Shown here: piece after piece, positions 3,909-61,137 of the stretch
Position numbering within the stretch: position 1 is the stretch's first letter
Layout of the letters: each line of letters starts with the position of its first letter
Virus record (IMG/VR): IMGVR_UViG_3300020119_000126
Span: 26,157 to 90,156 of that record
Reading direction: 5' to 3' (one strand)
From: a virus
Length of the DNA: 64,000 nucleotides
Made by a program: the position numbers and the translations under genes
The notes under the pieces: generated by a model
Told to the model about the DNA's origin: nothing
What the model saw: the letters and a program-made list of their open reading frames with translations, nothing else
The model's database searches: none

Positions 3909-5081
3909 CTAGACCTTCTTCAGATATTCAGACTTGATCCACGCCGGGAGTAGAACTTGCGTCCAGCCAGACTGGTCGCCTACCGCTTCTATCTGTTCGC
4001 CTGTATTCATCATCTTGATGATGGTGCCATTAGGGGTCAGGCGAACACGAACAGGACCATCCACTACTTCGGCTGTGCCGTAAATAGGTTCTGGCTGCTT
4101 TGTCTGGACAAAGAGGCATTGCCTGCCGTAGCCCATGTCAGTCAGCGCCTTATCGACCTGACCTGTTGGTACAACGAGGCTTTTGCCGCTATTAGGTGCC
4201 CAATAGTCAGGGTCATGAATAATAAAATTATCCTGATCGTCGTATCCTATAACGACAAAAAAGTGCCCATCACTGCCCGGCACCCTATCAGCCTGATCCA
4301 GTCGGCCTAGAATATCCCTATAAGCGACAAGACAAATAACAGGTCGGCCTGCATCAATCTCTGCCTTGATAGTGGGAATAGCGACGTTGCTCACGGTCTT
4401 GGTGGTCAGGTTATAGAGGCCAGCCAGAGTCACAAGCTGCGGCACGGTTAGACCCGCATCGGTATAGCGCAGTGGCGTGTCCATACTCAGGCGGTCAACT
4501 GTGGCATTAGACTTATTGTAGAAAGCTAACAGCATGGCTACGCAGGCGACTCCACAGTCGTTTCTACGGCCATTAGCTCCAATGCCCCATTGTGTGATGT
4601 AAGGTACGTTGAGAGTGACCACTTTAGATTCCTTTGGCAAAACTTGAATGAATTGATTATCCATTGCAGCTAGACCCTGGCTAAGATGCTCTGGCGTGAT
4701 ATCTTGACGGCCAATATTCGGATCAATGATGGTAAAATTCGGCGTGCCGAACCCAATCACGACGATAGCGTGTGGTCCATACCAATCTACAGCCACAATG
4801 ACTGGTCTACCTTGACGCAGTTCTGACCTGAGATAATCCAGGGTCAGGCCAATGCCATAAGTCACAGGCACGCCCTGGCTGGTGATGAAGTCGGAGAGGT
4901 CCATCAGGTAGACCCCTGTATCTGCCTTTGGCATCAGACGGGCACTAATCTGATCTACAGTTATAGTAAGTTTGCTATAAAACTTCAGCAGCATAGCCGC
5001 GCAGGTCGGGGCACAGTCATTGATGAACTTACCTGCATCGGGTTCGGTTTGCAGGAGCACAGGGACATTGATAATGGTCAT
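3909..5081 (-). CDS. Tandem C39-like (papain-fold) cysteine peptidase with C-terminal SH3b-like domain; probable endolysin or cell-wall hydrolase
   Basis: Two copies of Q..NDCxxxCxAM / HxxVVIG / IxDP; C-terminal 'VRVRLTPNG...GWTQV...WIKSEYL' resembles SH3b. Confidence 0.7.
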   Translation of the reverse strand: MTIINVPVLLQTEPDAGKFINDCAPTCAAMLLKFYSKLTITVDQISARLMPKADTGVYLMDLSDFITSQGVPVTYGIGLTLDYLRSELRQGRPVIVAVDWYGPHAIVVIGFGTPNFTIIDPNIGRQDITPEHLSQGLAAMDNQFIQVLPKESKVVTLNVPYITQWGIGANGRRNDCGVACVAMLLAFYNKSNATVDRLSMDTPLRYTDAGLTVPQLVTLAGLYNLTTKTVSNVAIPTIKAEIDAGRPVICLVAYRDILGRLDQADRVPGSDGHFFVVIGYDDQDNFIIHDPDYWAPNSGKSLVVPTGQVDKALTDMGYGRQCLFVQTKQPEPIYGTAEVVDGPVRVRLTPNGTIIKMMNTGEQIEAVGDQSGWTQVLLPAWIKSEYLKKV

Positions 5082-5803
5082 GCGGCTGCTAAGCCGTATT
5101 CATCGTTGAAATAGTTGGATATATCAGCTTGCTCTGTAGAATTTAGAGCCTTATTGAATAAAGCAAGTTCAGCAAACTGACCAGAAAAGACCGCAGTGAA
5201 TCCAGTGTTAGGGCCAAAGCCAACATACAAGGACGTGTTACACGTGTTAACTGACAGGCCAGAACTTGCTTGAGAGGCCAGATTTGAACCTCTATAGAGA
5301 GTGCCAGAACTCAATATCCCGTAGATCAAGTACCAGGCACCTGTTGATACAGAGACACCGCTACTGTTTGTATTCCAGATGTCCACGTAGGCTGACGAGG
5401 ATTGCACGGTCCACTGCCACATCTGGTCGTTACTAAAGGTGCAGCCCCAACCCAAGAAACTAGCTCTGGTGCTCACATCAGAAAACTTCACAATGGCATA
5501 CATCGAGCGGGCAGCAGAGCCAGAGATACCAATGTTGCCTGATGTAGCCATATAACTACTGCCCCAGGTCAGAGCAGGTTTACCGTTAATTTGATTGGTG
5601 TGGTAAGTTGCTGTCGCGCCGCTCAAGCCAAAGCCGTTGCCAGCGCTATCGGCCCACGTTGTTGTTGTAGCTCCATCGGCCAGGGCAAGACTGCTGGCTT
5701 TATACCAGGCATAAACGCCAATATCAGCGGGCGTCCTGAGATAACTCAGCGCTTTAGGGTCAATAGGGCCTGGATTACGAGAGCGAGTTCGCTGAGTAGG
5801 CAT
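5078..5803 (-). CDS. LamG/concanavalin A-like domain virion protein (possible receptor-binding protein)
   Basis: 'AWYKAS...WADSAGNG...INGKPAL' and 'FSGQFAELALFNKAL..EQ..ISNY' LamG motifs. Confidence 0.75.
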   Translation of the reverse strand: MPTQRTRSRNPGPIDPKALSYLRTPADIGVYAWYKASSLALADGATTTTWADSAGNGFGLSGATATYHTNQINGKPALTWGSSYMATSGNIGISGSAARSMYAIVKFSDVSTRASFLGWGCTFSNDQMWQWTVQSSSAYVDIWNTNSSGVSVSTGAWYLIYGILSSGTLYRGSNLASQASSGLSVNTCNTSLYVGFGPNTGFTAVFSGQFAELALFNKALNSTEQADISNYFNDEYGLAAA

Positions 5804-6153
5804 TAAGTAATCCTGTTCACGAAGCCACTGATGACGATAACGTTGGCTGTCGCGCAGTATGCTTTGACAACCAGTGAATTTTGCAGCAATTCACCAGATA
5901 CCACCAAAACCTTGCCTTCTCGTGGTGCAAGTGTTAAAGCTATATCATCATCAGGTGAAGTGGTTCCACCCCATTGAATAATCAGTTCGCGATTGGCGGT
6001 ATCAGTATTAACGGCATATAACCATATTTCATCAAGGTCAGATGTTCCGCTGACCGCCGTATGTATCGTGGTTCCCGGCGAAGATGTGGCTGCAACCTTA
6101 ATTTGCTTGCCATTGGTGCTGCCGCTCAGTGGATATTTTGTGTATGTCGCCAT
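5803..6153 (-). CDS. Small virion/tail protein
   Basis: 'LSGSTNGKQIKVAAT..GTTIHTA..DEIWLYA..ISGFVNRI' resembles a common phage tail-associated family. Confidence 0.65.
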   Translation of the reverse strand: MATYTKYPLSGSTNGKQIKVAATSSPGTTIHTAVSGTSDLDEIWLYAVNTDTANRELIIQWGGTTSPDDDIALTLAPREGKVLVVSGELLQNSLVVKAYCATANVIVISGFVNRIT

Positions 6154-7290
6154 TTAACTAAAGACCTGCACTTCTAGAATACTTCCGCCACCACCTGTAC
6201 CGAAGTCGAGTTGAGCAACGCCACCACCAAGGTCAGTCAATGTCCCATTGGTCACATGGATTTCTGTGGCAGTGACCGAAGGGGTACCATCCTGCTCTTG
6301 GACAATGACTGATGTTGCGCCTGCTGTGTTGGTCAGTTCAATCCATAGGGCTGCCCCGACTGAAGCGCTAAAACAGGCGTAAAGCCGCGAGTGTGTCTGA
6401 TCCCACCAGAATGATTTATTGCTATAGCCTGCGCTAGAGTCGTCGCTTACCGAGGGGGCCGACGAAGCGCCAAAGTTACATTTAATGGCAGTTAGCGCAC
6501 CATTGGCCGATGCTTGCTGAATGAGTCCTGGTCCACTGCTGGATGACAGGTCACTGCCTGTACCGCCACGAGCTTGACCTAGTTGACCTGTGGTAAGTTT
6601 GGACGTATCCAGATTAGGGATGTCGCCAGAAGCCAAGGCTGCTACTGTGACATTCGCGCCTGTGGTCGCTTGCTTGAGAAAGCCAGCACCAGTGGCAGAC
6701 AGGTCAGCATTAGTGCCGCCTGCGGAAAGCGCCACTTTGGTCATCGGCGTGGCCGTCACCCAGGCAGTCCAACCTGACTTATTCCACTTAATATCAACTG
6801 ACCTGACCCGGACTGATTTGACCGTTGAACTGACATAAGGTAGAACACTACCTGCAATCATCAGATTGACTGCACCAGTTTCGGCAGTATCATCAGCTAC
6901 TTCAAACTCAAGGGTAACTGGTGTATCAACCCCCACTGTACAACGAGCCAGGAAGCCACCCAGGACAGGAATGATGGTCAGGTTAGAAGGAGCCAGGGCA
7001 TTCGTCGAGGTTGAACTGGTATTGCCTGCGGCTTGAGGATTGGCGTAGGAACCTATCACTATCCAGCGGGCTGTGCGGGGAGAGCGAATGAGGACTACGC
7101 GGTCATTCTGCTGTAGGGTTAGACCTTTGGCCGCATAAGCTGATTGATATTTATTGCCTTCAAGTTTGACACGCACCTCAGAAGTAGCAACAGAAATAAC
7201 GGTGCCTTCTTTAACCAGAACCTCAAGAGCGTCATCAACCAGTTTGCGAGTAGCATCAACGTCTGTCTTGTTGTAGAAGGTCTTTCTCAT
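6154..7290 (-). CDS. Tail tip/fibre-associated protein (OB-like N-terminus, FN3-like segment, fibre repeats)
   Basis: ORF track; 'GGTG' fibre repeats; position in the tail module. Confidence 0.6.
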   Translation of the reverse strand: MRKTFYNKTDVDATRKLVDDALEVLVKEGTVISVATSEVRVKLEGNKYQSAYAAKGLTLQQNDRVVLIRSPRTARWIVIGSYANPQAAGNTSSTSTNALAPSNLTIIPVLGGFLARCTVGVDTPVTLEFEVADDTAETGAVNLMIAGSVLPYVSSTVKSVRVRSVDIKWNKSGWTAWVTATPMTKVALSAGGTNADLSATGAGFLKQATTGANVTVAALASGDIPNLDTSKLTTGQLGQARGGTGSDLSSSSGPGLIQQASANGALTAIKCNFGASSAPSVSDDSSAGYSNKSFWWDQTHSRLYACFSASVGAALWIELTNTAGATSVIVQEQDGTPSVTATEIHVTNGTLTDLGGGVAQLDFGTGGGGSILEVQVFS

Positions 7291-10504: not shown

Positions 10505-11743
10505 TTATGAACGAGCACTATTGATGCTAGACGTATAAGACAAGACCCGGCTGGTCAGGTCCATGGTGAGGGCTTCAGGCGTATTATAGAATTCCAGGCA
10601 GCCCTCTGAGCTAACTAAAGCCGTTGGAGTTGCCAGGTAAAGCTTCTCACCTGACCTGACAATGGCAGCAGAGTCAGTGAAGTCACCATCCCCATCAGTG
10701 TCTACATCCAGGGGAATAATCTGCTCACTTGACCAATGTTTGCCATCGCGTGAGGAGTAATAGGATGCCACCCTGTAGCCATAGCTGGTATCTACTTCAT
10801 TACGGTCACCTTCAAAGCCGACGCTGGTTACCCATAGGGTGTCATGAGAGTTCGGCACGCCGAATATTGAGTTCGTGCCCATAATCTTGGCTGAAGTGCG
10901 ACACTGAATAGCCAAATCCCACTCGTCAAAAACCTGAACAGGATACCAGCGTGAAGTCTGAGCCAGACGCGAGTCCTGTGGTGGACGAATAATGAAGCTA
11001 ATCAAGCCACCTGCGGGCACTGCCTGTTTAACAGGTAATCCTGCCACTGTCTTATAGGTATAAGTCGATGGCAGCATGGCTGACATGACAATGCAATGCC
11101 TGACCTCGGTTGTGGTATGGTCACCTGTCGTATCATCAGCTTTAGCCGTGAAGTCAATAGCATCCATCTCAAAGATGGTATTGGCCCAGGTCAAGTTCAG
11201 GTCATATTGATCCGTGGTATCTGCTGCAATAAGCGTATAAGTACCATTTACATCGGTAGTTATGACATAAAGCAGAGGAATAGTGCCGACGACCACACTA
11301 AAAAAGGCAGGTTGAACAAAGTTCACTGAGGAATAACTCGTGTTAGTGCCCCAGGTCAAACCATCTAATGAGGTAGCCCGATAGACATAACCCAGGCTAT
11401 TGATGGCATACACTTCCCAGGTCGAGCCATTCTTGATGACCTTGGGTTGGATACCAGGATACTGGTCAGTGTCAATTAGCTCTGGCGAAGCCCAGGAGCC
11501 ACTGACATAAGCCTCGCAATACAGACTGAGTGTTGCCTGATCAATATAGGCCCGAACCAGGGTAGTGTCATCAGCGTCAATTGAGAACTGGGTAGTCACA
11601 TCTCGACTGATCCGACTCAGATAGGTATCAAAGGAAGGATTTTGACGTTGGACCGTGAGTTCTGGCACAATATTGGCTGTAGCAGCCAAAAGCGCGTTGT
11701 AGTCATCTGAAGAAAGGCCAGACTCAGCTTGAGTGATGGTCAT
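10505..11743 (-). CDS. Tail tip protein, N-terminal part (beta-propeller/Asp-box)
   Basis: 'SLDGLTW' and 'SRDGKHW' Asp-boxes; second gene after the tape measure. Confidence 0.65.
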   Translation of the reverse strand: MTITQAESGLSSDDYNALLAATANIVPELTVQRQNPSFDTYLSRISRDVTTQFSIDADDTTLVRAYIDQATLSLYCEAYVSGSWASPELIDTDQYPGIQPKVIKNGSTWEVYAINSLGYVYRATSLDGLTWGTNTSYSSVNFVQPAFFSVVVGTIPLLYVITTDVNGTYTLIAADTTDQYDLNLTWANTIFEMDAIDFTAKADDTTGDHTTTEVRHCIVMSAMLPSTYTYKTVAGLPVKQAVPAGGLISFIIRPPQDSRLAQTSRWYPVQVFDEWDLAIQCRTSAKIMGTNSIFGVPNSHDTLWVTSVGFEGDRNEVDTSYGYRVASYYSSRDGKHWSSEQIIPLDVDTDGDGDFTDSAAIVRSGEKLYLATPTALVSSEGCLEFYNTPEALTMDLTSRVLSYTSSINSARS

Positions 11744-12219: not shown

Positions 12220-15200
12220 GTCTTGTCATACATATTGCTGATTGTGCTGATGGCCTTGCCCGGCTTGCTGTCTGGCACCATGATGATGGCATTAGCCCCC
12301 TCAGAATGAATAACCTTGAGCAAGTCACGAATTTCTTTGAGCAATTCAGTCTGCTCAGGTGACATCACCACAGGCGCACCTGCCTGGGGAATGACATATT
12401 CGCCCTTATGGACTGTACCTGCGGCCTGGTATTTACTGCCTGACCCGGTATAGCCACCCTCAGCAAAACCATGATAGCTTGTCGTCCCATCAGGATGGCT
12501 AACTGCGGTGATGCCCATCGGCTGCTGAGTAATGGTTGGGCTATTATAAGTTGACTGCACATGCCACTGACCATCAGCCCCAGCCACAAGAGCACCACCA
12601 CTAGGAACAACGGTTGCTCCACCTGTGCCAGCATAGCTACCACTACCAGAAGGCATAGGGGCTGAAGCTAATTGTTGAAGTTTGGCTGCCACATTGCCAA
12701 GAGTCGTTATTGCCCCTTGTCCAGTCGTTGAGACATACTGAAGGGCAGCCGCATTCTGGCTATAAAGCGTATTGGCCGCTGTGATTGATCCGGCCAGATC
12801 ATCGATAGCTCGTTTTTCAGCCTGATGGAAGGTCAGGCTTTGCTGAGCTTGAGTCAGTTCTTCCTGAGTAATCTGGCGGTTGAAACGGCGCTTCTCATCA
12901 TCAAGCTGGCGTTCTTCATGGGCAAACTCGATTTGCTTCTGGTAGTTCTGCTGCGCCAGTTGGAAGTTCTGGACCTGGAACTGCTTGTCCTGTTGGAAAT
13001 GCTGCTCATCACGCTTATATTGCTCGTCACCCCACTTAATCCTGGTCTTGGCCCGTTCTTCCTCGGTATCCAGATGGCCCATTTGCATGGAGTGTTGAAC
13101 CACAGCCTCATCACGATGCCGCATTGCCACCCGGCGTTCACGACCTCGCGAATAGCGCACGCTTTCATCAGCATCAATCATCGAGAAGCCAAAATTGACC
13201 TCGCTGACATTGCGCTGGAAAGCCATGTCTTGCAGGCCCCATTGCTGCTCAGACACCTGATGACTACGCTGAATCTGCATACTCTGCTGCTGGTAGTTCA
13301 GGTTATAGTTCATCTGCTGGCCTTGCAGCGCCATCTGCTGACCCTGGTACTGGAAGCCCCAGTCCTGCTGAGCACGCTGCTGAGCTACGCCACGATCCTC
13401 AAAGCCCCAGTTGGCCTGAGTCGAGCGTACCTGCCGATTAAGGTCAACCTGAGCCAGATTGAAGTCATATTCCCTGACCTTATATTGCTCGGCATTCATA
13501 GCCGTGGTCAGTTGGACCTGGTTCATGCTGCTCAGTTGGCTGCCACTATAGAGGCTGTTGCCTGTGACCATACGCTGACTTGAAGCGATACCAGCCCGCT
13601 GTGAAGCAATGTCACCAGTAATCCGCTCGTCATAACCCGCCTGCATCCCCAGTGAACCACCACGAGAGCCAGTCTGGACCAGGCGACGATTATTACCGAC
13701 CATGCCACGGTCAGCCGCAATGGAGTTAGCGATAGGATCACCACCTACTACAGCCATACCGAAGGCAAAGTCCTGACCACTGGCATTAGCAGCGAAGGAG
13801 TCGAAGGCTTGCATGGTGGCTGGATTAGCATTGCCATAGCGGGTATAACCAGCGTAAGTGTTGAAAGCGCCCTGTGCCTGGCGACCAATCCGATTAGCCA
13901 GTGCGTAGTCGCCCGATAATTCGGCACGCCGAACTCCCTGGAAGGCGGCTGAAGACTGGTCATTGAAGCCCAGGCCAGCATTAGCCATACCGCCGAACAT
14001 CTGTGCCCCTTGCAAGATGCCCTGTTGCTGCTCGGTGTTCAGACCCATGAAGGTCTGTTCATTCGTTGAGGTCAGACCAGTCTGCCGGGCAAAGGCGTTA
14101 TAGCTGCCTGCATAGGCAGTGGCTACTGTCAGGTTCTTGCCTGCGGTGCCTGTCATCCCATTCATCTGATTAATGGCATTGACCCGGTATTGGTACATTG
14201 CCGCATCATCTGAGGTACCCTTACCTGCCATCTGTGCCCTGGCCTGTGCTAACGCTTCAGGGTCAAGGCCGCGCATCTGCAAGGTGGCATAGCTCAAACC
14301 GATGTGATTGATGTCACCAGAGGATTGAGTCTGGTCAAAGGCATTGATATTATTGAGGTAGTTCCAACCTTGCTGCATATTCCCAGTGCTCATCTCGCCT
14401 GCATTCAGGACGTAGGAAGCACCCATATTGCCAGCCGATGTGGTGTCCATACCTCGACCCAGTTGAAGCTGGTTAGTCATACCAGCCTTCATGCCTGTTC
14501 GACCTAGTAAGCGCTGGAATTGAGCCGGGTCAGAGGTTCTGACACTGTTCAGGATATTGCCCCACAGGTCGCCCTTGGTAGAGTCGTTAAACTGTGACTG
14601 GTAGTCAATACCATACTGCGCCCAGGCACCAGACTGCTGGATACCACCCAGGATGTCGCGCATCGAGCCGGGATTGGCAGTGAACTGGTTGAGCAGGTCA
14701 AGAGGATTAACTATCTGCTGGCCTGCGGCATATTGCTGCTGCTGAGTAGACTGCGCCTGGCCTGAGAAGAAACCCAGTTGTTGCTGCTGAGCGATAGATA
14801 GTCCTGTGACTGCTGTAGCGGCTGTCTGGTAAGCTTTAGAGCCATAAGTGCTGGCTTGAGGACCGCCTTGAGCAAAAGCCACCCCACCCATGATGCCAGC
14901 CGCATCAAAGCCATACTGCTTACCTGCGGCAAACAGTTGGGCGACATTGCCAAAGTTGGCATAATCATTGCCTGCGGCTCCCCCACGCGCTCCACGACCA
15001 CGCAGTCTGTCTTCAGGAATGCCACCAAAGATAGCTTCAGCCTGTACCGTGCCAGCAAACTGAGCAGTGGCATCATATTGGCCGAGCAGTTCGCCGTGCT
15101 CTGAGATGTAGCCCTGCGTAATACGCTGCATCATCTCTGACCCGTACTTCGGTTTCCCATCAGGACCAATAGTGTAGAGGCCAGCATTCAGCGAACTACT

Positions 15201-18200: not shown

Positions 18201-21200
18201 CGCTGAGGAAGCTCCGGTGCCCGCCATATATGCATTCAACTGCCGGGTGTGCCTGACCTGGTCTTCAGGGTCAGACATATCACTGAAGGTCAGGTTCCAA
18301 ACCGAGTTATTCTCCTGGTCATACCAGGCTGCCTGACCATTGACCCACACCCCGCCAATATTCAAGCCACCAGTGAACTTCTCACCAGAAGGATCAAAGT
18401 AAAGGGACTGTTTCTTGGAGCGGGCAATGCCATTCATCGTGCCAGGCTTCAAGCCAAGCACCTGCGCGGCAATCTCATGACCAAAGCCTGATGGGTCAGA
18501 CTGCCAGATAGGTGCGCCTGACTTAGATTTGCCCATCTTCTCTGACTGGAAGGGCACACGCAGTACGGTACGACCTACGGCACGAGCCAGTGAGACACCG
18601 CCCATTTCACCAGCACCAAGTAGAGTCTCCATGGCTGCTTCCGCAGTCAGGGCATAAGCTGGCACATGGAAGCGGGCATAAGACTCCTCAGAGTAAGGAG
18701 CGCGAGGCATCATCTGACCCCGGTCTACATTCATTCGTCCCGGTTGAGTAGGTGGAGCACCCATCCCAGCATTGAAACTAGCTGAGAATTCAGCCCAGTC
18801 ACCCGGATCAGGTGGCAGGTCAGCCGCCATAACCATAGGTTCCACAGGAGCCTTAGTCTGCATTCCTGTTAATGCCGTGGCAAAGGCGGTTGGAAATGCC
18901 TGACCTTTTGACCATGGCTGCTCAAAGAAAGTTGTGGCTGCGGTCTTGATTTGATCTATTTGCCGAGCAAAGACTGCTGAAAGTTCTTGAGCACTCTCAT
19001 AAAATAAATCGACATGTTCTTGAGACAGTTGGATAGGGTCAGTAATTAGCTGAGTCGTCAAAGCCCAGGTCATGATGTCACTACGATGAGACAAGGCTCG
19101 CGACTCAATGCCCGACACAGCCATTTCAGCCGCAACACCAGCTAGAAGCCGCTTGGCCTGAGCCTTGCGGTCACTGGTCACGGTAACAATAGCCGCACCT
19201 TTACGACTTAGCTCAGCATCACGCTCAGAACCAATGCTAATGCCCTCTAGACTGCCTGGGGTCAGGAATTCGGCTACTAGAGCATGACCTATCTCATGAA
19301 CGCCTGTGCTTAGTGCGCCAAGGATTGGATGCTCTGGACGAACTGGAAGCAATTCATGAAGCTTGTCTCGGAAGTCGAGATTTTTATATGATTCTTCGAT
19401 TTGCTCCCGATAGCGCTGGCGAGTGGCATCACTCAAGCGGTTGGGGTTAAGCGCCGCCGCTCTAATATTAGAGAAGTCAATTACATCTACTGGCGCAGTC
19501 GGTTCGGCAACATTCGGCATGCCGAAATCTTGCGGAGCCTTGCCAAAGTCCCAGGCTACACCCTTTGAGGTTGGTTTGCCTACCTTATTACGTAGGTCAA
19601 CTGCCCGCTGAGCATATTTTGCCAATGGATCATCAAAGGTTGACCCCTTGAGATGGACCAGTTGGGCAGCCCGCTGAATGGCTTCATTGCCTGCTTCACC
19701 AGTCGGGAAGAACTCCTTATTGTGGTAAAGTGCGTCCATCAGGTCAGTGGCAGACATCTCACCTGACCCATAGAGTCCACCAGTGCCAACGGCCAGTTCT
19801 AGCCGAGCCGCTTGAGCAGCAATCTCCCGGTAGCGGTCAGCCCGTTGTTGAGAACCAAAGCGCTCCTTGGTGAAGAAGGTCGCCACATCATAGGGTAGAT
19901 ACTCGCGTTGTTTCTCCTTGGTAGTGAAGTTCTGGCCGACTTCCTTAGTAATCTGGTTGAGGACCATCTTGCCTGTGAAGTACGAGGCAAAGGAATTACC
20001 CAGGGCAACCCCTGACCCTAGTAACTGGCTGATCTTGCCAGAGGCTGAGCTATCACCATTACGGAAATCTTCCACATGGCGAGTAACTTCAATTAAGGTC
20101 TTCTCATAACTATTTTGGTCAACCGGAACCATGAGCCGCGCAATGTCCTGCGCTGTCATGTTCTCCTTTTTATTGACCAGGAAAGCTTGAATAAGTTTAT
20201 TGGAGACACTACGGTCACTACTCAGGTTGGTATAGTCAACCTTACCCTTCAGATCAGGAAAGAAAGTGCCAAGACTCTCATTAGACAGCTTGAGTAGTTC
20301 CGCACCAGCCGGGTCAAGTGGTTTGGTGTCGAGCACCGTCTGATACTGGTAGGCACGAAAGTTCTCAGAGGCAGTTAGCGCCGCTTCATTATTGCCAAGG
20401 GTCTTATACCAGGCCCTCATGCCAAAGGTCATATTGAATATCTGACCCATCGCAGCTTTGGCTGTGGCAGTATCCTGCGTACCCTGACCAAGCACATTGA
20501 TTGCGGCTGTGGCTGAGTTCTGCTTATTGGCAATGGTATTGGCGATACCAGAGATGGTCAGGCCGCCATAGTCCGTGTTCTGAATTTCAAGCCAGGTTCC
20601 GGCCTGACCCGCTGGATGATTAGGATCAAGAGAGGCAGCCAAAATTTCGGCATGAGGCGTAGGCCGCTGGATACTGACCAGCTTGCCATCACGCAGCGTA
20701 ACCATAGCTGGACCAATGGTTGTGGTATCTTTGTCGAAGTCACCGCCCTGCTTGAACTGGTCAAGAGGTGAAATCATCAACTGGTCTTCGTTGAATTCCA
20801 TGTCGCTCAGACCAAGCCGACGACTTAAGCCCTCACTCATAATTGAGGTATAGCTGGCCTGCTTCAAGGTCATATGAGGTGACCTGAAGATAGGCGCAAC
20901 GGGCAGAATGCCTGCATCCAAAGCACCGACCAGACCTACCTGATGCACTGCCCCCAGGAACTCATGTTCCTTGGCTTTGATAAGGTTAGTAAGGTCTTGC
21001 TCAGACAGGTCATGACCAAGTTCTTTCAGGTTGGCCTTGATGTACTCCCGGTAGCGATGACTGCTCATTCCAGCCAGGCCAGCCGTCATCATCGGGTCAC
21101 CACCCACTGGCAAATGGGCTGCCGCATCACCACGACGACCAATGACTGAGTCGCGAGTTGCCTCTCGACTAGCCAGCTTGGAGACTGCCTCAACTGCACC

Positions 21201-27218: not shown

Positions 27219-27281
27219 GATGAAACCTCATTGACCTATTCGGTATGCCGAATTCTCAGCCATGTCGAAGCGGGACGGTGA

Positions 27282-33381: not shown

Positions 33382-33537
33382 CGTCGTCTGCGCCTGATGA
33401 CCTGCTTGGTCCCTACAATCGGACTATCATAGAAGCCTTTGGCTATCCAGAAGCAGAGTCGAGCCAGTTTATGGTCCAGCATGAGCAATTGACCCCAACG
33501 GTTGAAGGTCAGGCCAATAATTCGGCATGCCGAAAAT

Positions 33538-35343: not shown

Positions 35344-35552
35344 CGAACAATGCCACCCAATGAGGTCGCATTCCACAACGAATTGTCATCAGTGTCGAGC
35401 TTGATGAAGAAAATGGTGCTATCTGAGTCCAACTTCATCCACTGCGACCCGTTGGTCATATGGACTATGGCAGGCTTATCACCTTGCAGCCATGCCTGGA
35501 AGATAGCTAAATAGCCCTGGTCAGTCGGGCCGAGCTTGATTGGTTCAGTCAT
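35340..35552 (-). CDS. Hypothetical protein, 70 aa
   Basis: Translationally coupled to both neighbours. Confidence 0.55.
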   Translation of the reverse strand: MTEPIKLGPTDQGYLAIFQAWLQGDKPAIVHMTNGSQWMKLDSDSTIFFIKLDTDDNSLWNATSLGGIVR

Positions 35553-37784: not shown

Positions 37785-37973
37785 CCTGGTTAATTGGCTA
37801 TATAAGCTCCTACACGTAAGTGTGGGAGCTATCCATATATAGTAGCGAGACCAGGGTCAGGTAAGCACGTAAAAGCGTGGGCTGGAAAGTTGAATATGCC
37901 GCTGGTATATCATCAAGTACAGATAGCCTGACAAGATATAACCTCGTTCGAGTAAAAATTCGGCAGGCCGAAT

Positions 37974-39390: not shown

Positions 39391-39659
39391 GCATTGAGGA
39401 AGTGACCCGGACTATCGTTGGTCTACTCATTGACCAGGGGCCAAAGGAACAGATTGATTGGCACCTTAGCACCATTCCAGTTCATGAGCTAACAGCGGCC
39501 AATATTCAGAAGCTTACTCGCGAGATTGATGCTATTGGCTTACTGAGCCGCCATGAACACAACACACATGATATTCTGACCAGCTTGAATGGTGTGCATG
39601 GTCGGGAGATGGTCATTCGTTATATCCAGAGCAAACTCAAATTCGGCATGCCGAAGTAA
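39387..39659 (+). CDS. Hypothetical protein
   Basis: GTGA overlap; AAGGA SD. Confidence 0.65.
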   Translation: MSIEEVTRTIVGLLIDQGPKEQIDWHLSTIPVHELTAANIQKLTREIDAIGLLSRHEHNTHDILTSLNGVHGREMVIRYIQSKLKFGMPK

Positions 39660-41335: not shown

Positions 41336-43795
41336 ATGAATGTTATCAATTCCAAATCGAAAACAGGTGGTCAGGTCTATCCCTTCCTTGCCAAGCTAGG
41401 TGACTGGACCATCACCAGTTATCTGCTACGCGAAGAAGAAGACATGACCTTGCTTCAGGCTAATCTCAGTAAGGGCCTGGTCTGGAATAAAGATGATCAG
41501 GTTAATGTCCTGACTACACCCCTGGCCGAGAATGGGCAGGCTATCCTAGACCTATTAGGATGGCAGGTCAGTTTCAAGAAATCACCTGCGACAGCCAGTA
41601 AGCGCATCAGTCGTATGGTGCGGCCATATAGATATGGGGCCGAGAATGTCAGTCTGTCCATATGGGAAGATGATACGCTCGACGCCAAGGTGTGGGATGG
41701 TGTCTTTCAAGTGAGTCGCGAATTCGTTCTCAAATGCGACCAGTATTTGAGCGGCCTCTCTCGCAAGAAGTATAAGCGACATATGGCTGAACTTGAATAC
41801 TGTCGCCGTTGGGAATTAACTATCATGGGGCCATTCGGCCAATATAAGGGTCATGCTGAAGTGGTTGACCTGCCCACTGGTATAGACATCCGGTGTCCAG
41901 TGGACGTAGCCAAGACTGAATTCAAATCAGCTTACCAATTTGCTGGCCTCAATGCCGTTCATGGGGCACAACAGATGAAGCTGGACATTCAGAGCCTCAT
42001 TAACCTGCTCAACTTTTTCGGCGTGCCGAATATTGTGCAATGGCTAGAGCAAAGCACGCGCCATGTTCTCAAGGGTATCAGCAATAGTGATACCCCTGAA
42101 CTAGCACGAATGCTCTATAACCTTGAGAGTGCGGAAGCCATTGACCGTCTGGATGAATGGGCCGTTGGTGCTTATATTGTCAGTGGTGGCAAGATTGAAT
42201 GGTTCTCCAAGGCTATCATGGGTGCGGCTGACCAATATAAGAACCAACTGCGCAGCCAGAATGATGGTATGCGCTTCCCTGTACCTGGTGGTGGTGCTTA
42301 TATTGCTCCTGCTTCAATGGGCAATCGCGTGGTTGAGCCAGGCAAATGCTTGCTCGACTGGGATACAGCCAGTCTATATATCGCTGATGAAGACTGGTCA
42401 GCCTATTCGCGGCGTAATGGAGGCTTTGATGCTGATGATAGGCACTGGGTCGTGTATTTCTTGGACAAGGCCGATAATCGTCATAAGGTGCTGTTCTATA
42501 GGAGTCCAAACCAATCGGGCGAATATCTTCTCTGTGAGCCAATGCTGGGCAGTGATACCACAGCCTGGTTTGACGGCACTATCCCCGAACTCAATAGTCT
42601 TGACCTACCTCTGCCGATTGAGAGCCAGGGCAATCATTATGGCACAATCGAGCGACTAGATGTGCTAGGCATGTATCCTGACCACTATGAACCTCAAGCC
42701 CTGTGGCTGACCATTGAACAATGCGCTAAGAACCTGGGTGTGTTGGGCCGCTTCTGTAATATGCTCATGCTCCATGTGGCTGTGTTTGATGATAGTCCTC
42801 ATGACCTGCCTGCCAAACTTGAGGATGTGATTGATTTCACAGTCAAGGAAGTAGGCGATCTCAGTCAAGTGCTGCTATGGATACAGAAGATAGCTGAGGT
42901 CATTGCAGCCCGACCTGTGCCCAAGTCATTGGCTCCACGGTTAGCTGGCATGGTGGACTTCAAGCTGAGCTATACCAGTGCTCATGAGATTGACCAGTTG
43001 ACTGAGGCTATGCAGCGCACGATGGCCTGGTTTGAAGATGAGGTCAGCCAAATAGCTATTAAGGCTATGCCGCCTGTGACTCTCTTTGAGTATGGCCGTG
43101 AACATATGCCACGAGTCAATGAAATGCGCAGTATCTATGGACAGTTCTTGCGCAAGGTCATTGAGCAGCGGGTACCTAATAGTGATGACATGCAGAAGGT
43201 CAAGGAGTTGGTGCAGAAGAAGCTTGCTGAGTTTGAGACTGCTGAACATCCTGACCTGATGTATGGCCTGGTCTCCAATGTCTATACCCTTGGTGCTCAT
43301 GGTGTAGGGGCTAAAGATAGAGGTTATATCCGTGATGGCATTCTGTTCAATGCAGTCGGTGAGCAGTTCATCGAAACGCTGCGTATGCAGGGCATCATTG
43401 GCGATATTGAGTGGGATGGTCAGAAGGCTGAGCTTATCTTCAATAACCCTGAGATTGATCCGATACGTCCTTTGAACATGCTAATGAAGGCAGTGTGGTA
43501 CAACCTGTACCGTCTGCACACCAAGCAGGATATTGCCATGGGTCAGATCAGTAAGGAGAAGCGTACCGAGTATAAGCTGATGGTCAGGAACTTCATACCC
43601 ACCTGGCTAGGGCAGCCATTTACCTTGATGACCAGTCCTACTATGGAAGGCAGGCAGGAGTTCAGAACCAAACTGGGCAATATGATTGCGCTGTTATCGA
43701 CTGACCAGTCTATACCAGATGGTCACTATGAAATGGTCAGTGCCATTGAAGATGATGGCAACTTGCATACCGTAATGAAAGGGATACTAACGTGA
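41336..43795 (+). CDS. Putative single-chain two-barrel (non-virion) RNA polymerase
   Basis: Motifs WDG (aa ~121), YKG (aa ~171), NGGFDADD (aa ~365) and YRSPN; 819 aa. Confidence 0.6.
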   Translation: MNVINSKSKTGGQVYPFLAKLGDWTITSYLLREEEDMTLLQANLSKGLVWNKDDQVNVLTTPLAENGQAILDLLGWQVSFKKSPATASKRISRMVRPYRYGAENVSLSIWEDDTLDAKVWDGVFQVSREFVLKCDQYLSGLSRKKYKRHMAELEYCRRWELTIMGPFGQYKGHAEVVDLPTGIDIRCPVDVAKTEFKSAYQFAGLNAVHGAQQMKLDIQSLINLLNFFGVPNIVQWLEQSTRHVLKGISNSDTPELARMLYNLESAEAIDRLDEWAVGAYIVSGGKIEWFSKAIMGAADQYKNQLRSQNDGMRFPVPGGGAYIAPASMGNRVVEPGKCLLDWDTASLYIADEDWSAYSRRNGGFDADDRHWVVYFLDKADNRHKVLFYRSPNQSGEYLLCEPMLGSDTTAWFDGTIPELNSLDLPLPIESQGNHYGTIERLDVLGMYPDHYEPQALWLTIEQCAKNLGVLGRFCNMLMLHVAVFDDSPHDLPAKLEDVIDFTVKEVGDLSQVLLWIQKIAEVIAARPVPKSLAPRLAGMVDFKLSYTSAHEIDQLTEAMQRTMAWFEDEVSQIAIKAMPPVTLFEYGREHMPRVNEMRSIYGQFLRKVIEQRVPNSDDMQKVKELVQKKLAEFETAEHPDLMYGLVSNVYTLGAHGVGAKDRGYIRDGILFNAVGEQFIETLRMQGIIGDIEWDGQKAELIFNNPEIDPIRPLNMLMKAVWYNLYRLHTKQDIAMGQISKEKRTEYKLMVRNFIPTWLGQPFTLMTSPTMEGRQEFRTKLGNMIALLSTDQSIPDGHYEMVSAIEDDGNLHTVMKGILT

Positions 43796-48612: not shown

Positions 48613-48639
48613 ATTCGGCATGCCGAAAAAGGATACCAA

Positions 48640-52458: not shown

Positions 52459-52828
52459 GGAGTCATACACTCTATTGGGAAGGACTCTAACGTGAAGGGC
52501 ACCTCTGAACATTTTCTCCGCAACGAAGGTCGGCTCAATGAGTCAACCATTACCATCGAGACCATTGAGTTCGACAGCCGCGAAATTTTCCATGTCACCA
52601 TTTGCTATACTCGTAAGGCGCTCAACACCCAATGGGGTCGGGACGACTGGGAAGTAGGCTGGTTTGACAAGCGCGAAGAAGCCGAAAAGATGGCTATTCG
52701 CAAGCTGCGCGAATTCAATAGTCTCATTCGGGCAGCCTATAAAATGCCACGGTTTCGTGGTGCGCCTAACGGCGTCAGAGTGCGAGAGACTAACCACAAA
52801 TAATTCGGCGTGCCGAAAAGGAAAAACC

Positions 52829-53872: not shown

Positions 53873-55996
53873 TGTGGGAATACCACATGGAAATCTTGAG
53901 GGGCGAGTCCATTGAGGGCTTGCCCGACCTACTGTTCATCCTGGGTAACGAGGGTTGGGAACTCGCTACCCTCAATATCGTTGATGGGTCTTTGATTATC
54001 TTCTTTAAGCGACAAAGATCAGGAGAAGCCGATGCCTAAGAAAACTACCGCTGAGCTACCCAAGCAGCCTGGTGAACCCACTGACCTGATGAAAGCCAAC
54101 TTCAACCTGATGACAGGTCAGAACCAATTGGTCCTGCTCTCTGGTTTCTATAACAATCAGCCTGCGGTACATCTGGCTGCGGTCATCAAGGACGGCGAGG
54201 ACTTCCTCATCTTCCCTATTGCCCGAATGTATACCGAGCGAGACATGAAGCTCATTGGCGATCCTGAGAATAAGCGCACGGAGAATGTGGATAAGGAGCA
54301 AAATTAAGCATGGGTTATTATCGAACCATGATTACCATCGAAGTCCTTAGCGAAGACCCTATTGAGGCCATTTCTCTACAGGATGTTGTCTATGGTATTA
54401 CCGAAGGACATTGGTCAGGTGATTGGAATGCTGAGGAATCATTAGAAGTCACCGCTCCACAGATGGCTAAACTCCTGATAGCCCAAGGTTCTGACCCTGA
54501 GTTCTTTAATCTCGATGATGACGGAAACGAGATTGATGAAGAAGAAGAAACCGAATGACCAAGTATCTCCTGATCAAGTACAGTGACAACTACTCGGACG
54601 AGTTCGACGTTGAAGGCTTCAAGGTCATGACTCAGGACGAGTGGAAAGCTTTTCGGGAACAGGTCCAGTATGGCCTGTACCCCTATGACTATTACATCGG
54701 CACTAATGAACTCATTCAGTACGCTGACTCACAGAGGCTACTCGATGCCCTGACCCCTGTTTCTGTTGGCAGCAATGTCCTCAAGGAAATACTTCTGGCT
54801 TTGGGTAAAGAAGTGGTCAAGGAATTTGGTTTCTTCCCTTCTGGCCCTGAGCTTCCTATTGAGGCCGAAGAAAATCCTACAGGCAAGCAAGCCTTCTGCT
54901 CCTATTGTCAGACCACAGTTTCAGTTGTCATCCATGACGATATGGTCTGGAACAGTAAGGCGCAGGTCTATGACACTGATTATATGCTTCGCAGCCACTA
55001 CTATGACAATGATGCTGAAACTGGCTTGCTGTGTATGGGCAGCAATACACTAGTGGCAAATGAGGACATAGAGGATGTTCCGCAATGAACTTTTGGGATT
55101 ATGCCTTTTTACTCAATGCTATAGAACAACATGACAAAGCCACTCGCCATAACTTCGGCTTGCCGGAAGGTTGGACCACTGACCTGCGCAATGAAATTGC
55201 AGGTCGGCTTGAAATATGGCAGTGGGTCAACATGCCTCTTTCCATTGGCGAGGCTTATGGCTGTTATGTGACTGAGGAAGAAGGTCAGCATTTCCTGACC
55301 ATCTGGCCTGGGCACAAACTGGCACGAGTGGTCTCCATGGGAAAGGTATGGGAAGGTAAGCGTTCCTACTTCCGTAAGAACCGCCGCCGTATGGTTTATG
55401 CCAGGGATGATCGGGGCTATAGCTACCGGGGCTTATGGTGTTTCGATGCTCAAGACCTGGTCAGGATCAGGCGAACGGCATGACCCGCTAACGCGGGGCG
55501 CTCCGAAAGGAGTGTGCTATGGAACCCTATTTTGATGCTGCTGACCTGCATGATGCAATTGCCGCCAAGAAGCCGCATTTTGACTGGAATGAAGATGACG
55601 GCTTCATGGAAATCTACGTATATTCTCCTTACGATGGTCATGTTCTGTTATCCATACCTGTCACACAGTTGGGATACGACAGGGTCAATGACCTAGTAAA
55701 CTCCCTGCAACAAGTGCGTCAATACCTGCAAGAGCGACTTGTCCCTTCAGTTGATTCAGAGGGCAAAGTCTGCTATAATGGTGTTTACAAACGCAACGTT
55801 GTAGGTGATAATGGACAATCCCTCTCAGACGGTGATAGACGAGCAGATAGAGCGGGTCATCGACCTGCGCAATCAAGCAGCGATGCAGAACGACGCGAAG
55901 CTGACTGCGCAGCATGACCTGAATCTTAATCGTCTATTTCAGGCTGATTTCGCCCTAAACTCCAATCCGAATATCAATAAGCAAAGGACACATTAA
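53872..55996 (+). CDS. Run of small hypothetical genes
   Basis: Coupled ORFs ending at 54039, 54307, 54558, 55088, 55483, 55917 and 55996. Confidence 0.5.
55751..55779 (+). promoter_or_regulatory. Sigma70-type promoter TTGATT-N17-TATAAT with extended -10 TG
   Basis: Consensus -10 with TGn and 17-bp spacer; upstream of the SSB operon. Confidence 0.65.
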
Positions 55997-56410: not shown

Positions 56411-56963
56411 TGCGTAAAAAGGTGGTCCCGAAGCGGTTATACATTCACTTTGGCTCGGATATAAATGCCATAGTGAGTGCGACTAACCGTCTTCGGGACA
56501 CTCAACCCCGCACGGTGCTCTACGAAATTGACACCCTTGAGCAACTTCGATGGGCACTAGACTTCGCTGACAGTGACCCGGCTGAGAACGCTATCATTGA
56601 GGTAGCGGCCTATACTGCCGAGATGGATAAAGTCGTGCGGGCCTATCATGGTCAACGCGAACTCAACTTCTACGCTTTTTTCGGCATGCCGAAAAAGCAA
56701 TATATTCCTGAAGGAGATGTATGGGTTACTTATACCAGACCTCAGTAATCGCCAATGAGGATGTTTCCCTCAATCCAGGCGATGGGGCTGTAATCAAAAT
56801 CGTGGCTATTGTTGGCGACATTGGCAAAGACTGGGCAGCCTATTGGGGCTGGAACAGTATGCACGACCATCAGATTGCCGAATATGGCATGAAGCTGCCA
56901 AGAGATACTGCTGAGGGGCTATTCCCCTATTTCCGAGAGAAAGGGTTGCACTACCGTGATTAA
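56410..56963 (+). CDS. Two small hypothetical genes (56410-56748 and ~56721-56963)
   Basis: ORF track; coupled to neighbours. Confidence 0.5.
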
Positions 56964-58884: not shown

Positions 58885-59532
58885 ATGATACAAGGTCTCA
58901 CATACAAGCGTGATTACCTCTTTATTCGGCAAGCCGAAGGAATCCTGAAGCAGATTGATGAAGCGCCATGGAACCATGACCTGAAGCGCCGCACGCAGCA
59001 TTATGGTTTCAAGTACGACTATACCCGGCGTAAGGTCAGCATGGACCTGGATAAGTGTGCGCCACTGCCGAAGTGGGCCGATACTATTGCCATGATGCTC
59101 AGCCAGGATAAATACATGCGACCTGAGCCAAACCAGTGCATCGTCAATGAGTACGAGCCAGGTCAAGGGATTGGCGCTCATGTGGACTGTGAGCCATGCT
59201 TCGGCAATACCGTGGTCTCCATTAGCCTGGGTGGGCCATGTGTGATGGAGTTCACAAACCGTTCTGATCCCGGAGAAGAAATCGGCAAGCAGTACAAGCT
59301 CTTACTTGAGCACAACTCGCTATTGGTGCTCACTGGGCCAGCCCGGTTCTGGTGGACTCATGCTATTCCACCACGGAAGACAGATAGCTGGAAAGGTCAA
59401 GACATTCTACGGCAGCGCCGAGTAAGTCTGACCTTCCGCACTGTGCTTGATGAGATTTACCAGATAGATGACCCGCTAATCATCGATATGCGGGCTGAAG
59501 GTGGATTGGTTACGAGCGTACAGCGTCATTGA
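58885..59532 (+). CDS. AlkB-family 2OG-Fe(II) dioxygenase
   Basis: 'RRTQHYG..YDY', 'NEYEPGQGIGAHVD', 'WTHAI' and 'RRVSLTFR'. Confidence 0.9.
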   Translation: MIQGLTYKRDYLFIRQAEGILKQIDEAPWNHDLKRRTQHYGFKYDYTRRKVSMDLDKCAPLPKWADTIAMMLSQDKYMRPEPNQCIVNEYEPGQGIGAHVDCEPCFGNTVVSISLGGPCVMEFTNRSDPGEEIGKQYKLLLEHNSLLVLTGPARFWWTHAIPPRKTDSWKGQDILRQRRVSLTFRTVLDEIYQIDDPLIIDMRAEGGLVTSVQRH

Positions 59533-60503: not shown

Positions 60504-60505
60504 TG

Positions 60506-60534
60506 TTGACTTTCATGTGGAACACCTGTACAAT
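60506..60534 (+). promoter_or_regulatory. Sigma70-type promoter TTGACT-N17-TACAAT
   Basis: Near-consensus; directly upstream of dcd. Confidence 0.7.
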
Positions 60535-60555
60535 ATAGGACGAATAAAGAACACA

Positions 60556-61137
60556 ATGAATCTACTCAACGACACAGAAATCAAAATGCTGCATGAAGAT
60601 GGCGAATGGATGATTAACCCATTCGTGCCACACGCAGTTCGGCGTACCGAAAATGGTGAATGCGTGAGCTATGGCTTAAGCAGCGTTGGCTATGATATTC
60701 GTCTAAGCGAGGAGTTCAAGCGTCCTCTGGACCGTGTTTCAGAAGGCTACTTTCGACCTGTTCTCGACCCGCATTTTCCTGGGAATGTCGAATGGAAGCT
60801 AGAAACACATCAGAACCTTGTGCTTCAAGCTGGTGAGATGATCCTTTGTGCAAGCCTTGAGTATTTCAACATGCCCTTGGACGTGGTCGGTATCTGTTTA
60901 GGTAAGTCTACCTATGCCAGACTGGGGTTGTTTGTGAACGTTACCCCGCTAGAGCCTGGCTGGAAGGGTCAACTGACAATGGAGCTATCCAACATTGGAC
61001 ACGTTCCACTCATGATTTATGCCAAGGAAGGCATTGCACAGCTATTGTTCTTCCGGGTGAACAGGCCACAGACTACCTATGCCGACAAGAAGGGCAAATA
61101 TCAGGGTCAGACAGGTGTAACCACTGCTCGACTATAG
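60556..61137 (+). CDS. dcd: dCTP deaminase
   Basis: 'SYGLSSVGYDIRL', 'GKSTYARLG', 'TPLEPGWKGQLTME' and 'KYQGQ'. Confidence 0.95.
   Translation: MNLLNDTEIKMLHEDGEWMINPFVPHAVRRTENGECVSYGLSSVGYDIRLSEEFKRPLDRVSEGYFRPVLDPHFPGNVEWKLETHQNLVLQAGEMILCASLEYFNMPLDVVGICLGKSTYARLGLFVNVTPLEPGWKGQLTMELSNIGHVPLMIYAKEGIAQLLFFRVNRPQTTYADKKGKYQGQTGVTTARL

Follow-up and report, generated by a model that had tools for sequence, protein, structure and literature searches.

We describe a 14-bp palindrome, TTCGGCNNGCCGAA, that recurs along the whole chromosome of an uncultured tailed phage. The stretch analyzed here (the window, 64,000 bp) runs from base 26157 to the final base, 90156, of the virus record IMG/VR IMGVR_UViG_3300020119_000126, whose complete genome we label G000. 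Over the complete genome the word is present in 20 exact and 5 one-mismatch copies where approximately none is expected, with a mean gap of ~3.6 kb, and these copies are spaced far more evenly than random placement would usually produce. They show no preference for either strand, and related phages carry arrays built from other palindromes at other positions. With a probability of about one half, we interpret the 14-mers as docking sites on duplex DNA for a two-fold symmetric (dimeric), phage-encoded protein, which would form a lattice over the whole chromosome.

Within the window, 12 exact copies are found against 0.02 expected (0 of 100 shuffles reached 12), and 16 copies lie within one mismatch against 0.14 expected. 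An earlier note on this stretch had listed 11 exact copies as well as four with a single mismatch (at 21786, 27239, 55154 and 60638); all of these are present, and one further exact copy, at 58925-58938, had been missed, which brings the exact total of the window to 12. Across G000, the numbers of sites with 0, 1, 2 and 3 mismatches are 20, 5, 7 and 26, compared with 0, 0.13, 2.7 and 29 in 100 shuffles, i.e., the mismatch spectrum is all-or-none and background is reached by three mismatches. The word is the sole over-represented palindrome of the 6-NN-6 form in the genome, with 20 copies where the next has 2. As isolated half-sites occur at chance level (20 for TTCGGC and 22 for GCCGAA, with 22 expected), only the dyad is enriched, and we take the dyad to be the functional unit. 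In other viral contigs, the exact 14-mer is found only in single copies among the matches listed (80 loci of 111 stretches); a 16-mer version gave 14 matches, all single, and the five records checked in their entirety have one copy each.

The symmetry extends to the center and the flanks of the word. Among the 25 copies, the two central bases are AT in 11, GT in 5, AC in 4, AA or TT in 4 and AG in 1, and a pyrimidine-purine step is never seen; a center of the type RY, which the earlier note had called usual, is true of 20 of the 25. The same note had described the flanks as A/T, and A or T indeed makes up 84%, 78% and 66% of the bases at positions -1, -2 and -3, versus 49% A+T in the genome. 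This preference is symmetric and covers three positions on each side, so that the 14-mer with its A/T flanks has a footprint of ~20 bp. When the asymmetric centers are read in the sense orientation, AC occurs 4 times and GT 5 times in G000, and they are likewise mixed in its relative G001 (described below); there is no strand bias.

The 25 sites are separated by gaps of 1281-6597 bp (mean 3600 bp) with a coefficient of variation (CV) of 0.46, and only 5 of 100,000 random placements were as regular (P=5e-5). The recurrence every 2-6 kb that had been described earlier thus holds, and its regularity is significant. Restricting the analysis to the exact copies, of which there are 20, gives a CV of 0.63 (P=0.026); the two largest holes between exact sites are filled by one-mismatch copies. 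Null models that place 40%, 70% or 100% of the sites at gene junctions are less regular, with a mean CV of 0.98-1.21, and the spacing in G000 still rejects them (P<=5e-5). The array of G001 is evenly spaced too, with a CV of 0.56 that none of 20,000 simulations equaled and P<=1.5e-4 against junction-aware nulls. Crude open reading frame (ORF) calls assign 20 of the 25 copies in G000 to the interior of ORFs (frames 10/6/4) and the remaining 5 to the stretches between them; after inspection of start codons, ~8 of the 25 are at gene junctions, ~7 of these 1-31 nt before a start codon. The early and structural arms are covered equally, and three copies lie inside the 12-kb tape-measure gene.

Related phages were found through homologs of the terminase, which run from 85% identity down on contigs of 70-92 kb; their DNA was compared only at identities of <=60%. 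The closest homologs, with 85% identity in the large terminase (TerL) and 79% in the predicted RNA polymerase (RNAP), lie on one 92-kb contig. A single-protein terminase scan of viral contigs returned no match, and alignment-based scans of these contigs gave relatives only at <=60% terminase identity. In five related viral records, no exact match to the G000 word was found, and two of the records have one 1-mismatch match each. The dominant palindromes of the relatives were identified de novo. G001 (73.9 kb) carries TTCGAT-NN-ATCGAA, with 22 exact copies and 36 within one mismatch, and the same word is present in 2 exact copies on the 6-kb contig L113. The other words are GCTTCC-NNN-GGAAGC in G002 (79.9 kb; 14 exact, 23 within one mismatch), TGGGAA-N-TTCCCA in L118 (22 kb; 5 exact, 10 within one mismatch) and GCGCAC-N-GTGCGC in L131 (9.9 kb; 5 exact, 6 within one mismatch). 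Outside G001's own record, the G001 word occurs in viral contigs only as single copies among the matches listed.

As a background, we examined 120 unrelated viral loci of at least 8 kb (1.42 Mb), of which 3 carry some 6+6 palindrome at least 4 times; these loci had been chosen for one chance copy of a 14-mer each, so the sample is not perfectly neutral. One of the three palindrome-dense contigs, L178, has GTGTGA-N-TCACAC 6 times in 8 kb; the other two, L013 and L035, have four copies each of other words, TCGCGA-N4-TCGCGA in 14.7 kb and AACGTT-N2-AACGTT in 14.5 kb. Palindrome arrays may be a wider phage habit.

The positions of the sites, like the words, differ between relatives. When in-gene sites were mapped by pairwise alignment of orthologs among G000, G001 and G002, none of those that could be placed fell on the same codon in the partner, and the nearest mapped pair, in the RNAP, is 17 residues apart. 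The sites bring in non-conservative residues that differ from those of the ortholog. Where G001 has a site in the ribonucleotide reductase gene, its protein reads PEFDQSK versus PEFKAQE in G000, and at its portal site it reads FGFDGSN versus FGYDLAD. The RNAP site of G000 sits on an invariant FF, with FFGVPN in G000 versus FFGVSN in the 79%-identical homolog, in which the site is not kept, and more distant RNAP homologs read FFGVDN or FFGTER at this place. Even G001 and L113, which have a common word and 65-68% nucleotide identity, have their terminase-gene sites at different places. At gene junctions, G000 and G001 have sites alike before the 602-aa gene (in G001, 29 nt upstream of its ortholog), at the 3' end of TerL and after the single-stranded DNA-binding protein (SSB) gene. 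We considered whether such junction positions are conserved and dropped the idea, as the 3-4 coincidences compare with ~2 expected by a rough estimate.

Several further observations concern the arrays of the relatives. Every one of the 36 G001 sites contains exactly one GATC (L119-L122), about one third of the G001 sites are one fixed asymmetric variant, TTCGATCCGTCGAA, and an MT-A70 adenine methyltransferase is common to G000 and G001. An apparent stop-codon recoding in the tape-measure region of G001 was rejected as an artifact of the ORF finder. In G002, an orientation bias (~16 of 21 with ACA in the sense strand) is weakened by crude ORF calls and by three copies in one repetitive gene. 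These three one-mismatch copies (G002 75189-75549; L126) belong to a 1022-aa gene, are separated by 120 and 240 bp and have longer repeated flanks; they stem from a repeat internal to the protein and do not count as independent sites. Several terminase homologs (P0008, P0023, P0028, P0042 and P0051) have a length of 720-950 aa and contain intein-type domains (PF14890, PF14528); in G002 and L118, too, the TerL ORF is long (731 and 739 aa, respectively).

Two lines of reasoning lead from these patterns to a docking lattice. The symmetry of the word, its A/T flanks, its step-type center, the strand neutrality, the all-or-none spectrum and the differing words of relatives argue that a symmetric dimer with co-evolving specificity recognizes the word as double-stranded DNA. 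The even spacing, the fast turnover of positions and the alteration of otherwise conserved proteins argue for selection for coverage of the whole chromosome and not of particular genes. From this we infer the binding of a protein, its origin in the phage and its role. The selected trait would be coverage, with one site per ~1.3-6.6 kb and no fixed position. Because coverage would be selected rather than position, sites would arise where they are cheapest, i.e., at gene junctions, at gene ends and in variable segments of proteins; they would turn over quickly, and the word would co-evolve with its reader, leaving related phages with different palindromes. The role is most likely chromosome-wide over gene-by-gene, with the sites serving for loading, anchoring or self-marking to cover or identify phage DNA. 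That dimeric protein sites run along the genome had been proposed in the earlier note; this is still the best reading and is strengthened by the symmetry, the lack of orientation bias, the even spacing and the relatives' words, while the roles suggested there (roadblock, segregation, staged entry and shielding) are not separable from one another.

We also entertain, as a speculative extension that we think is probably wrong in at least some part, that the array is an evenly spaced lattice of self-marks, a new class of chromosome-wide cis-element in virulent phages that is read by a fast-evolving phage protein of a non-ParB type. The reader of such marks may be a terminase-associated helix-turn-helix (HTH) protein. 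With such marks, the packaging, nuclease-protection or replication machinery could distinguish phage DNA from that of the host at any point of the molecule, and word and reader would behave as a co-evolving specificity pair that isolates related phages from each other.

Several findings weigh against the docking lattice. The array of G002 is not evenly spaced (CV 0.85), and the trait is patchy, as L116/L136, L133, L139, L115 and L144 (12-21 kb each) have nothing above shuffles and L128 and L114 are borderline with 3 palindrome copies each. A hairpin on either single strand would call for a palindrome just as much, and every word can form a stem. The only DNA-binding domain recognizable with Pfam and PHROGs on ~77 G000 ORFs, a winged-HTH (wHTH), fits poorly as the binder, and the other HTH protein of G000, of 198 aa, looks like a small terminase (TerS). 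Six-frame searches of G000 with ParB_N, HTH_ParB and KorB (PF02195, PF17762 and PF08535) gave 0 matches at E<=0.1, while control genomes gave matches in the same search; ParB_N (PF02195) was also not found in G001, G002 and G006. A very divergent relative, recognizable only by its fold, could have escaped these searches. The best-understood spreading mechanism is thus without an identifiable agent in G000.

The wHTH protein, a tandem of 154 aa at 35545..36009 (-), is the binder that had been put forward earlier, and it is disfavored. In G000, G001, G002, L128 and L114, a member of its family precedes TerL, with a small conserved protein between the two; the tandem duplication is confined to G000, and G001, L128, L114 and G002 have single-domain versions of 76-114 aa. 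Because the two repeats differ in their putative recognition helices (KRQSVYYQLALL vs RRQTIYRQFDLL), the protein fits 20 perfectly symmetric sites poorly. Moreover, the family follows the terminase module and not the arrays, as the gene is present in L128 and L114, which show no significant array, and is missing upstream of TerL in L118 and L131, which do have arrays. The wHTH protein is more likely packaging-related and a weak candidate for the binder.

The 198-aa HTH protein (genome 10892-11488, -; L140) is encoded in the replication module, antisense to its neighbors, an arrangement that is kept in G000, G001 and G002; an alignment-based scan of viral contigs recovered G001 and G002 only. 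Its family has 144 representatives. In the 50 members tested, the domains matched are HTH_23 (17), HTH_28 (13) and HTH_7 (7), and the commonest named PHROG is 'terminase small subunit' (11 of 50). The model of the protein (predicted local distance difference test, pLDDT, 83) has an N-terminal HTH followed by a long helical hairpin; its top fold match is the NV1 TerS, with Z 6.3 over 52 residues, a weak match for an all-helical model, and 2ao9 and the TerS of PaP3, G20c and E217 are among the non-significant Foldseek rows. A role for this protein as a regulator was rejected, as it appears TerS-like by PHROG and predicted fold. The 819-aa predicted RNAP was likewise rejected as an array-linked factor, since its presence does not track the arrays.

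Other explanations of the array were weighed against this evidence. The sites could be packaging or self-recognition tags, read by the 198-aa TerS-like or the wHTH protein, with the terminase or a partner distinguishing phage from host DNA, or engaging it, at many places and not at one pac site. It speaks for such tags that both recognizable sequence-specific HTH proteins of G000 look packaging-related, that the wHTH family lies directly upstream of TerL in 5 loci, that one site is 3 nt past the TerL stop and another 2 nt past the stop of the 198-aa gene, that the terminal overlap of the assembly fits a permuted genome, and that the HTH recognition helices differ between phages with different words. 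However, the helices differ no more than the proteins do overall (27-28% identity), the wHTH gene is present in L128 and L114 without a significant array, the fold matches of the 198-aa protein are weak for an all-helical model, and even spacing has no obvious use in packaging. Since pac and cos sites are single loci, one such locus would be expected, versus 25 sites around the whole genome; small terminases are rings, and to our knowledge they do not read short perfect dyads. We regard packaging tags as unlikely, although they and the hairpin considered next are the strongest of the rivals. We think equally little of a strand-neutral hairpin in single-stranded DNA, read by the phage primase-helicase for priming or helicase loading on whichever strand is lagging. 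In its favor, a palindrome would give the same small hairpin on both strands, and the strand neutrality and the selection for density fit this role; the phage has genes for an SSB, a DnaB-type helicase and a Zn-ribbon primase, the last two of which are present in all three full genomes, and the spacing of 1.3-6.6 kb is of the order of phage Okazaki fragments. The stems, however, are short and weak (a 5-bp stem with dG -4.1 kcal/mol for the G000 word, and 5-6 bp with loops of 3-4 nt and -2.2 to -6.7 kcal/mol for all words), and the arms are invariant and do not co-vary. As only 11 of the 25 centers are self-complementary, the loops on the two strands differ in most copies, and still no bias is seen; G002 lacks the even spacing, and primases of the DnaG and T7 types read trinucleotides. 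A signal for the phage two-barrel RNAP (a promoter element, pause site or terminator) is more doubtful still. The fold predicted for the 819-aa protein is that of a two-barrel RNAP, the ~7 of 25 sites shortly before start codons would suit such a signal, and four early-arm sites are weakly terminator-like, on the antisense strand only (a 5-bp hairpin score at 4 of 7 early-arm sites, in 20 kb scanned). Against it, the sites are unoriented relative to transcription, 17-20 of 25 lie inside genes, including those in the tape-measure gene, both arms are covered equally, and G002 has an array and no homolog of the 819-aa RNAP (G002 is 80% complete). The main text on the two polymerases of Thermus phage P23-45 describes AT-rich and GC-rich promoter motifs at pre-early and early starts and uses the strings 'palindrom' and 'hairpin' 0 times (PMC10770324); the G000 word differs from this type of promoter in being symmetric, unoriented and present in all gene classes and in coding sequence. 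No site overlaps a sigma-70-like promoter match, of which the early arm has 27 versus 26.2 in shuffles. An intrinsic terminator or a hairpin like those of repetitive extragenic palindromes was rejected given the 5-bp stem, the invariant arms and the location of most copies in genes.

A host origin of the word, as the site of a host protein or a host genome word copied by each phage lineage (for a regulator, a nucleoid protein, or uptake or repair), would account for the different words of the relatives, whose hosts probably differ (G+C 43-57%), and for the difficulty in pinning down a phage-encoded binder. The sole hint of a host is that terminases with 33-36% identity lie on contigs binned into metagenome-assembled genomes (MAGs) of Anaerolineales and Caldilineaceae. 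The host-repeat test proposed in the earlier note was run on this candidate phylum only, and the motif is at background there: among 401 Chloroflexota genomes, 216 have at least one copy with a maximum of 7 per genome, and a reversed-pattern control reaches a maximum of 8. This corresponds to ~1 copy per Mb or less versus 222 per Mb in the phage. Four genomes in the set are unpublished (G052, G159, G286 and G358, with 1, 2, 3 and 2 copies), and the claim does not depend on them. Three MAGs with distant prophage-like relatives have 0-2 copies. As isolated half-sites are not enriched in the phage either, and as the comparable word of the Cluster O mycobacteriophages is reported to be absent from host genomes (PMC4351075), we consider a host word very improbable, even though the link to Chloroflexota itself comes from distant terminases on MAG contigs, which makes the host-genome comparison a weak test. 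The remaining two candidates appear remote. As an RNA-level element, the word would form a small hairpin in mRNA that acts on translation or stability at cistron junctions; sites are enriched just 5' of ribosome-binding sites and start codons, and small hairpins are possible, but most copies are in coding sequence in all three frames, the loops have no strand bias, the stems are invariant and not co-varying, and the even spacing at the DNA level would go unexplained. A role as the recognition sequence of an enzyme that modifies or cuts DNA (the MT-A70 methyltransferase or a nickase, for example) would draw support from a mismatch spectrum as sharp as that of enzyme sites, from the methyltransferase common to G000 and G001 with GATC in all 36 G001 sites, and from the two T5orf172-type nucleases and the HNH-like protein encoded in G000. 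Enzyme sites are not normally over-represented or evenly spaced, however; the G000 word has no GATC, a methyltransferase homolog was not found in G002 by BLASTP, and a symmetric cut would break the genome.

For the docking lattice, a published precedent exists, which the earlier note, in stating that the motif was not recognized, had passed over. Cluster O mycobacteriophages carry a 17-bp repeat, TGTTCGGNNNCCGAACA, with 34 invariant copies in Corndog, located between and within genes with no meaningful orientation and few near-misses, and reported as absent from host genomes; its authors (Cresawn et al. 2015) suggest a dimeric DNA-binding protein and leave the function unexplained, and all five phages of the cluster have this word, mostly at corresponding positions (PMC4351075). 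We re-counted Corndog and obtained 34 exact and 3 one-mismatch copies. The two systems are alike in having one invariant inverted repeat tens of times per genome with few near-misses, in copies that lie between and within genes without orientation to transcription, and in the core of the half-site (TGTTCGG-NNN-CCGAACA in Cluster O, TTCGG-CNNG-CCGAA in G000). They differ in geometry, with a 3-bp spacer and 7-bp arms in Cluster O and a 4-bp spacer in the G000 core, and in spacing, as the Corndog copies cluster in the right arm and show no even spacing (CV 1.06, P=0.77), whereas G000 and G001 are strongly regular. In Cluster O, word and positions are shared, whereas the relatives of G000 compared here, at <=60% terminase identity, have other words at other positions. 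The phages are also unrelated, the G000 terminase having no match in 50,697 phage records, and Corndog gp90 is annotated as ParB-like, a type of protein not found in G000. The regular lattice, the mostly intragenic sites and the replacement of the word among relatives set G000 apart from Cluster O. The literature searched yielded neither an explanation of the Cluster O repeat nor a description of phage palindrome lattices with even spacing.

Other known systems resemble the array in part. KorB of the IncP plasmid RK2 acts at a distance from its O_B operators by sliding from loading sites (McLean et al. 2025, PMC11790492), and O_B resembles the G000 word in being a short perfect palindrome with a symmetric reader, scattered along a mobile element some tens of kb in size. 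G000, with multiple dispersed copies of its word, has the perfect palindromes of 13-16 bp that are expected of such an array. By analogy, such a loading-and-sliding logic would explain why coverage is selected over position. G000 differs in that no ParB_N, HTH_ParB or KorB domain was found and in being probably a virulent phage and not a plasmid; because no ParB-type protein was found, membership in the KorB/O_B family fails. The stoperators of mycobacteriophages also are many copies of a 13-14 bp word across a phage genome, bound by one phage protein (PMC9283540, PMC6550527), and those of Cluster A are described as asymmetric and read by a monomeric repressor (PMC9283540). The G000 word, on the other hand, is palindromic, unoriented and mostly in genes, and no tyrosine or serine integrase was found in G000. 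Stoperators are oriented with transcription and lie in the intergenic gaps of temperate phages. The conserved inverted repeats (CIRs) of the phiC31 repressor, as well as matS/MatP, SBS/SlmA and NBS/Noc, are dispersed palindromes with one dimeric reader and chromosome-wide or multi-operon roles; these site sets are degenerate, regional or intergenic, and not evenly spaced.

The individual copies of the window are distributed as follows. On the left, an exact copy at 4738..4751 (TTCGGCGTGCCGAA) lies in frame 0 of a 390-aa ORF (3909-5081, -) and encodes FGTPN, and another at 10851..10864 (TTCGGCACGCCGAA) lies in frame 0 of a 412-aa tail ORF (10505-11743, -), where it encodes FGVPN. The 3997-aa ORF (12207-24200, -), which takes the tape-measure position, contains an exact copy in frame 1 (13920..13933), an exact copy in frame 0 that encodes FGMPN (19513..19526, TTCGGCATGCCGAA) and a one-mismatch copy in frame 1 (21786..21799, TACGGCTTGCCGAA). 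This last copy, together with the intergenic one-mismatch copy at 27239..27252 (TTCGGTATGCCGAA), which is 20 nt 5' of the start of the 602-aa ORF (25410-27218, -), fills a 14-kb gap between exact copies. The exact copy at 33521..33534 is the one mentioned above that follows the stop codon of TerL (33538-35376, -). Further to the right, an exact copy at 37959..37972 (TTCGGCAGGCCGAA) ends 1 nt before the ATG at 37974 of an 82-aa ORF (+), and one at 39642..39655 occupies, in frame 0, the last codons of a 90-aa ORF (39387-39659, +), 31 nt before the TTG start of the ORF 39687-40166. The copy at 42017..42030, also exact, is in frame 0 of the 819-aa RNAP gene (41336-43795, +), where it accounts for the FFGVPN mentioned above.

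In the remainder of the window, the exact copy at 48614..48627 is intergenic, 1 nt past the stop of the ORF 48211-48612 and 12 nt before the ATG at 48640, and the exact copy at 52804..52817 abuts the end of the ORF 52450-52803, 11 nt before the in-frame ATG at 52829 of a DUF932 gene. A one-mismatch copy at 55154..55167 (TTCGGCTTGCCGGA) is in frame 0 of a 132-aa ORF (55085-55483, +), and an exact copy at 56680..56693 is in frame 0 of a 112-aa ORF (56410-56748, +), ~270 nt past the SSB gene and 27 nt before the ATG at 56721. The exact copy that had been overlooked (TTCGGCAAGCCGAA, 58925..58938) is near the 5' end of the AlkB-like ORF (58885-59532, +) in frame 1, and the one-mismatch copy at 60638..60651 (TTCGGCGTACCGAA) is in frame 1 of a dCTP-deaminase-like ORF (60385-61137, +). 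Outside the window, another copy of G000 is the one just past the stop of the 198-aa HTH gene. The four copies that the earlier note had placed just before start codons (27239, 37959, 48614 and 52804) are thus borne out; its proposal that the copies impose FG[MVT]P[KN] on the proteins holds for 7 of the 11 in-gene copies of the window, the other 4 being in frame 1, and genome-wide this is one of three frames used.

The phage itself is without a relative among 50,697 deposited phage genomes when queried with 10 kb of DNA, the 819-aa protein and the terminase. The two ends of its record overlap by 127 bp, and the completeness rating is 100%, with direct terminal repeats. G000 encodes a terminase, a portal and a major head protein, along with a replication module with the primase and helicase named above, ribonucleotide reductase, ThyX and dCTP deaminase; its further genes include SSB, RNase H, and AlkB-like and PARP-like proteins, as well as the MT-A70 methyltransferase (genome 21092-21868), the two T5orf172-type nucleases and the HNH-like protein. 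Because no tyrosine or serine integrase was found (the complete genome gave no match to Phage_integrase or Resolvase), the phage is probably virulent; a repressor-type HTH was not found by Pfam in ~77 ORFs either. The 819-aa protein (window 41336-43795, +) is a two-barrel single-subunit RNA polymerase by predicted fold (mean pLDDT of the model 78.5), which agrees with the label it had been given earlier. The structures matched by the model are QDE-1 and RDR2 (E 5e-10 to 1e-7) and, among phage enzymes, P74 gp62 and P32 gp64; by sequence, the protein has no Pfam, PHROG or PDB match, and its alignment has invariant GG-D-DD and RSPNQ-GEY blocks.

Among the accessory genes of the window, 39687-40166 encodes a protein with a ribosomal L7/L12 C-terminal domain, 46813-48069 a PARP-type ADP-ribosyltransferase, 48640-49149 a protein with a weak match to nucleoside 2-deoxyribosyltransferase, and 58885-59532 an AlkB-like 2OG-Fe(II) oxygenase. 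G000 is also rich in a second short word: the hexamer GGTCAG/CTGACC occurs 338 times versus ~44 expected (7.7x), and the pentamer GGTCA/TGACC 750 times versus 176 expected (4.3x). Both are equally frequent on the two strands and across all three gene arms, and the enrichment is peculiar to G000, its relatives showing 0.9-1.8x. Primases of the T7 type read GGGTC/TGGTC.

Since the 2015 report on Cluster O mycobacteriophages, exact palindromes scattered over phage genomes have been in the literature without an explanation. The present case adds that the spacing itself appears to be selected, that density is kept while positions turn over, and that words are swapped among relatives. As conserved proteins appear to have been rewritten under this selection, the array probably has an important function for the phage. 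The swapped words amount to natural specificity variants, from which the reader might be identified by co-variation, and, if the docking lattice is real, the words and their readers may provide orthogonal DNA-protein recognition pairs as tools. If a reader indeed marks or coats the phage DNA as 'self', the array would bear on how virulent phages discriminate their own DNA from that of the host.

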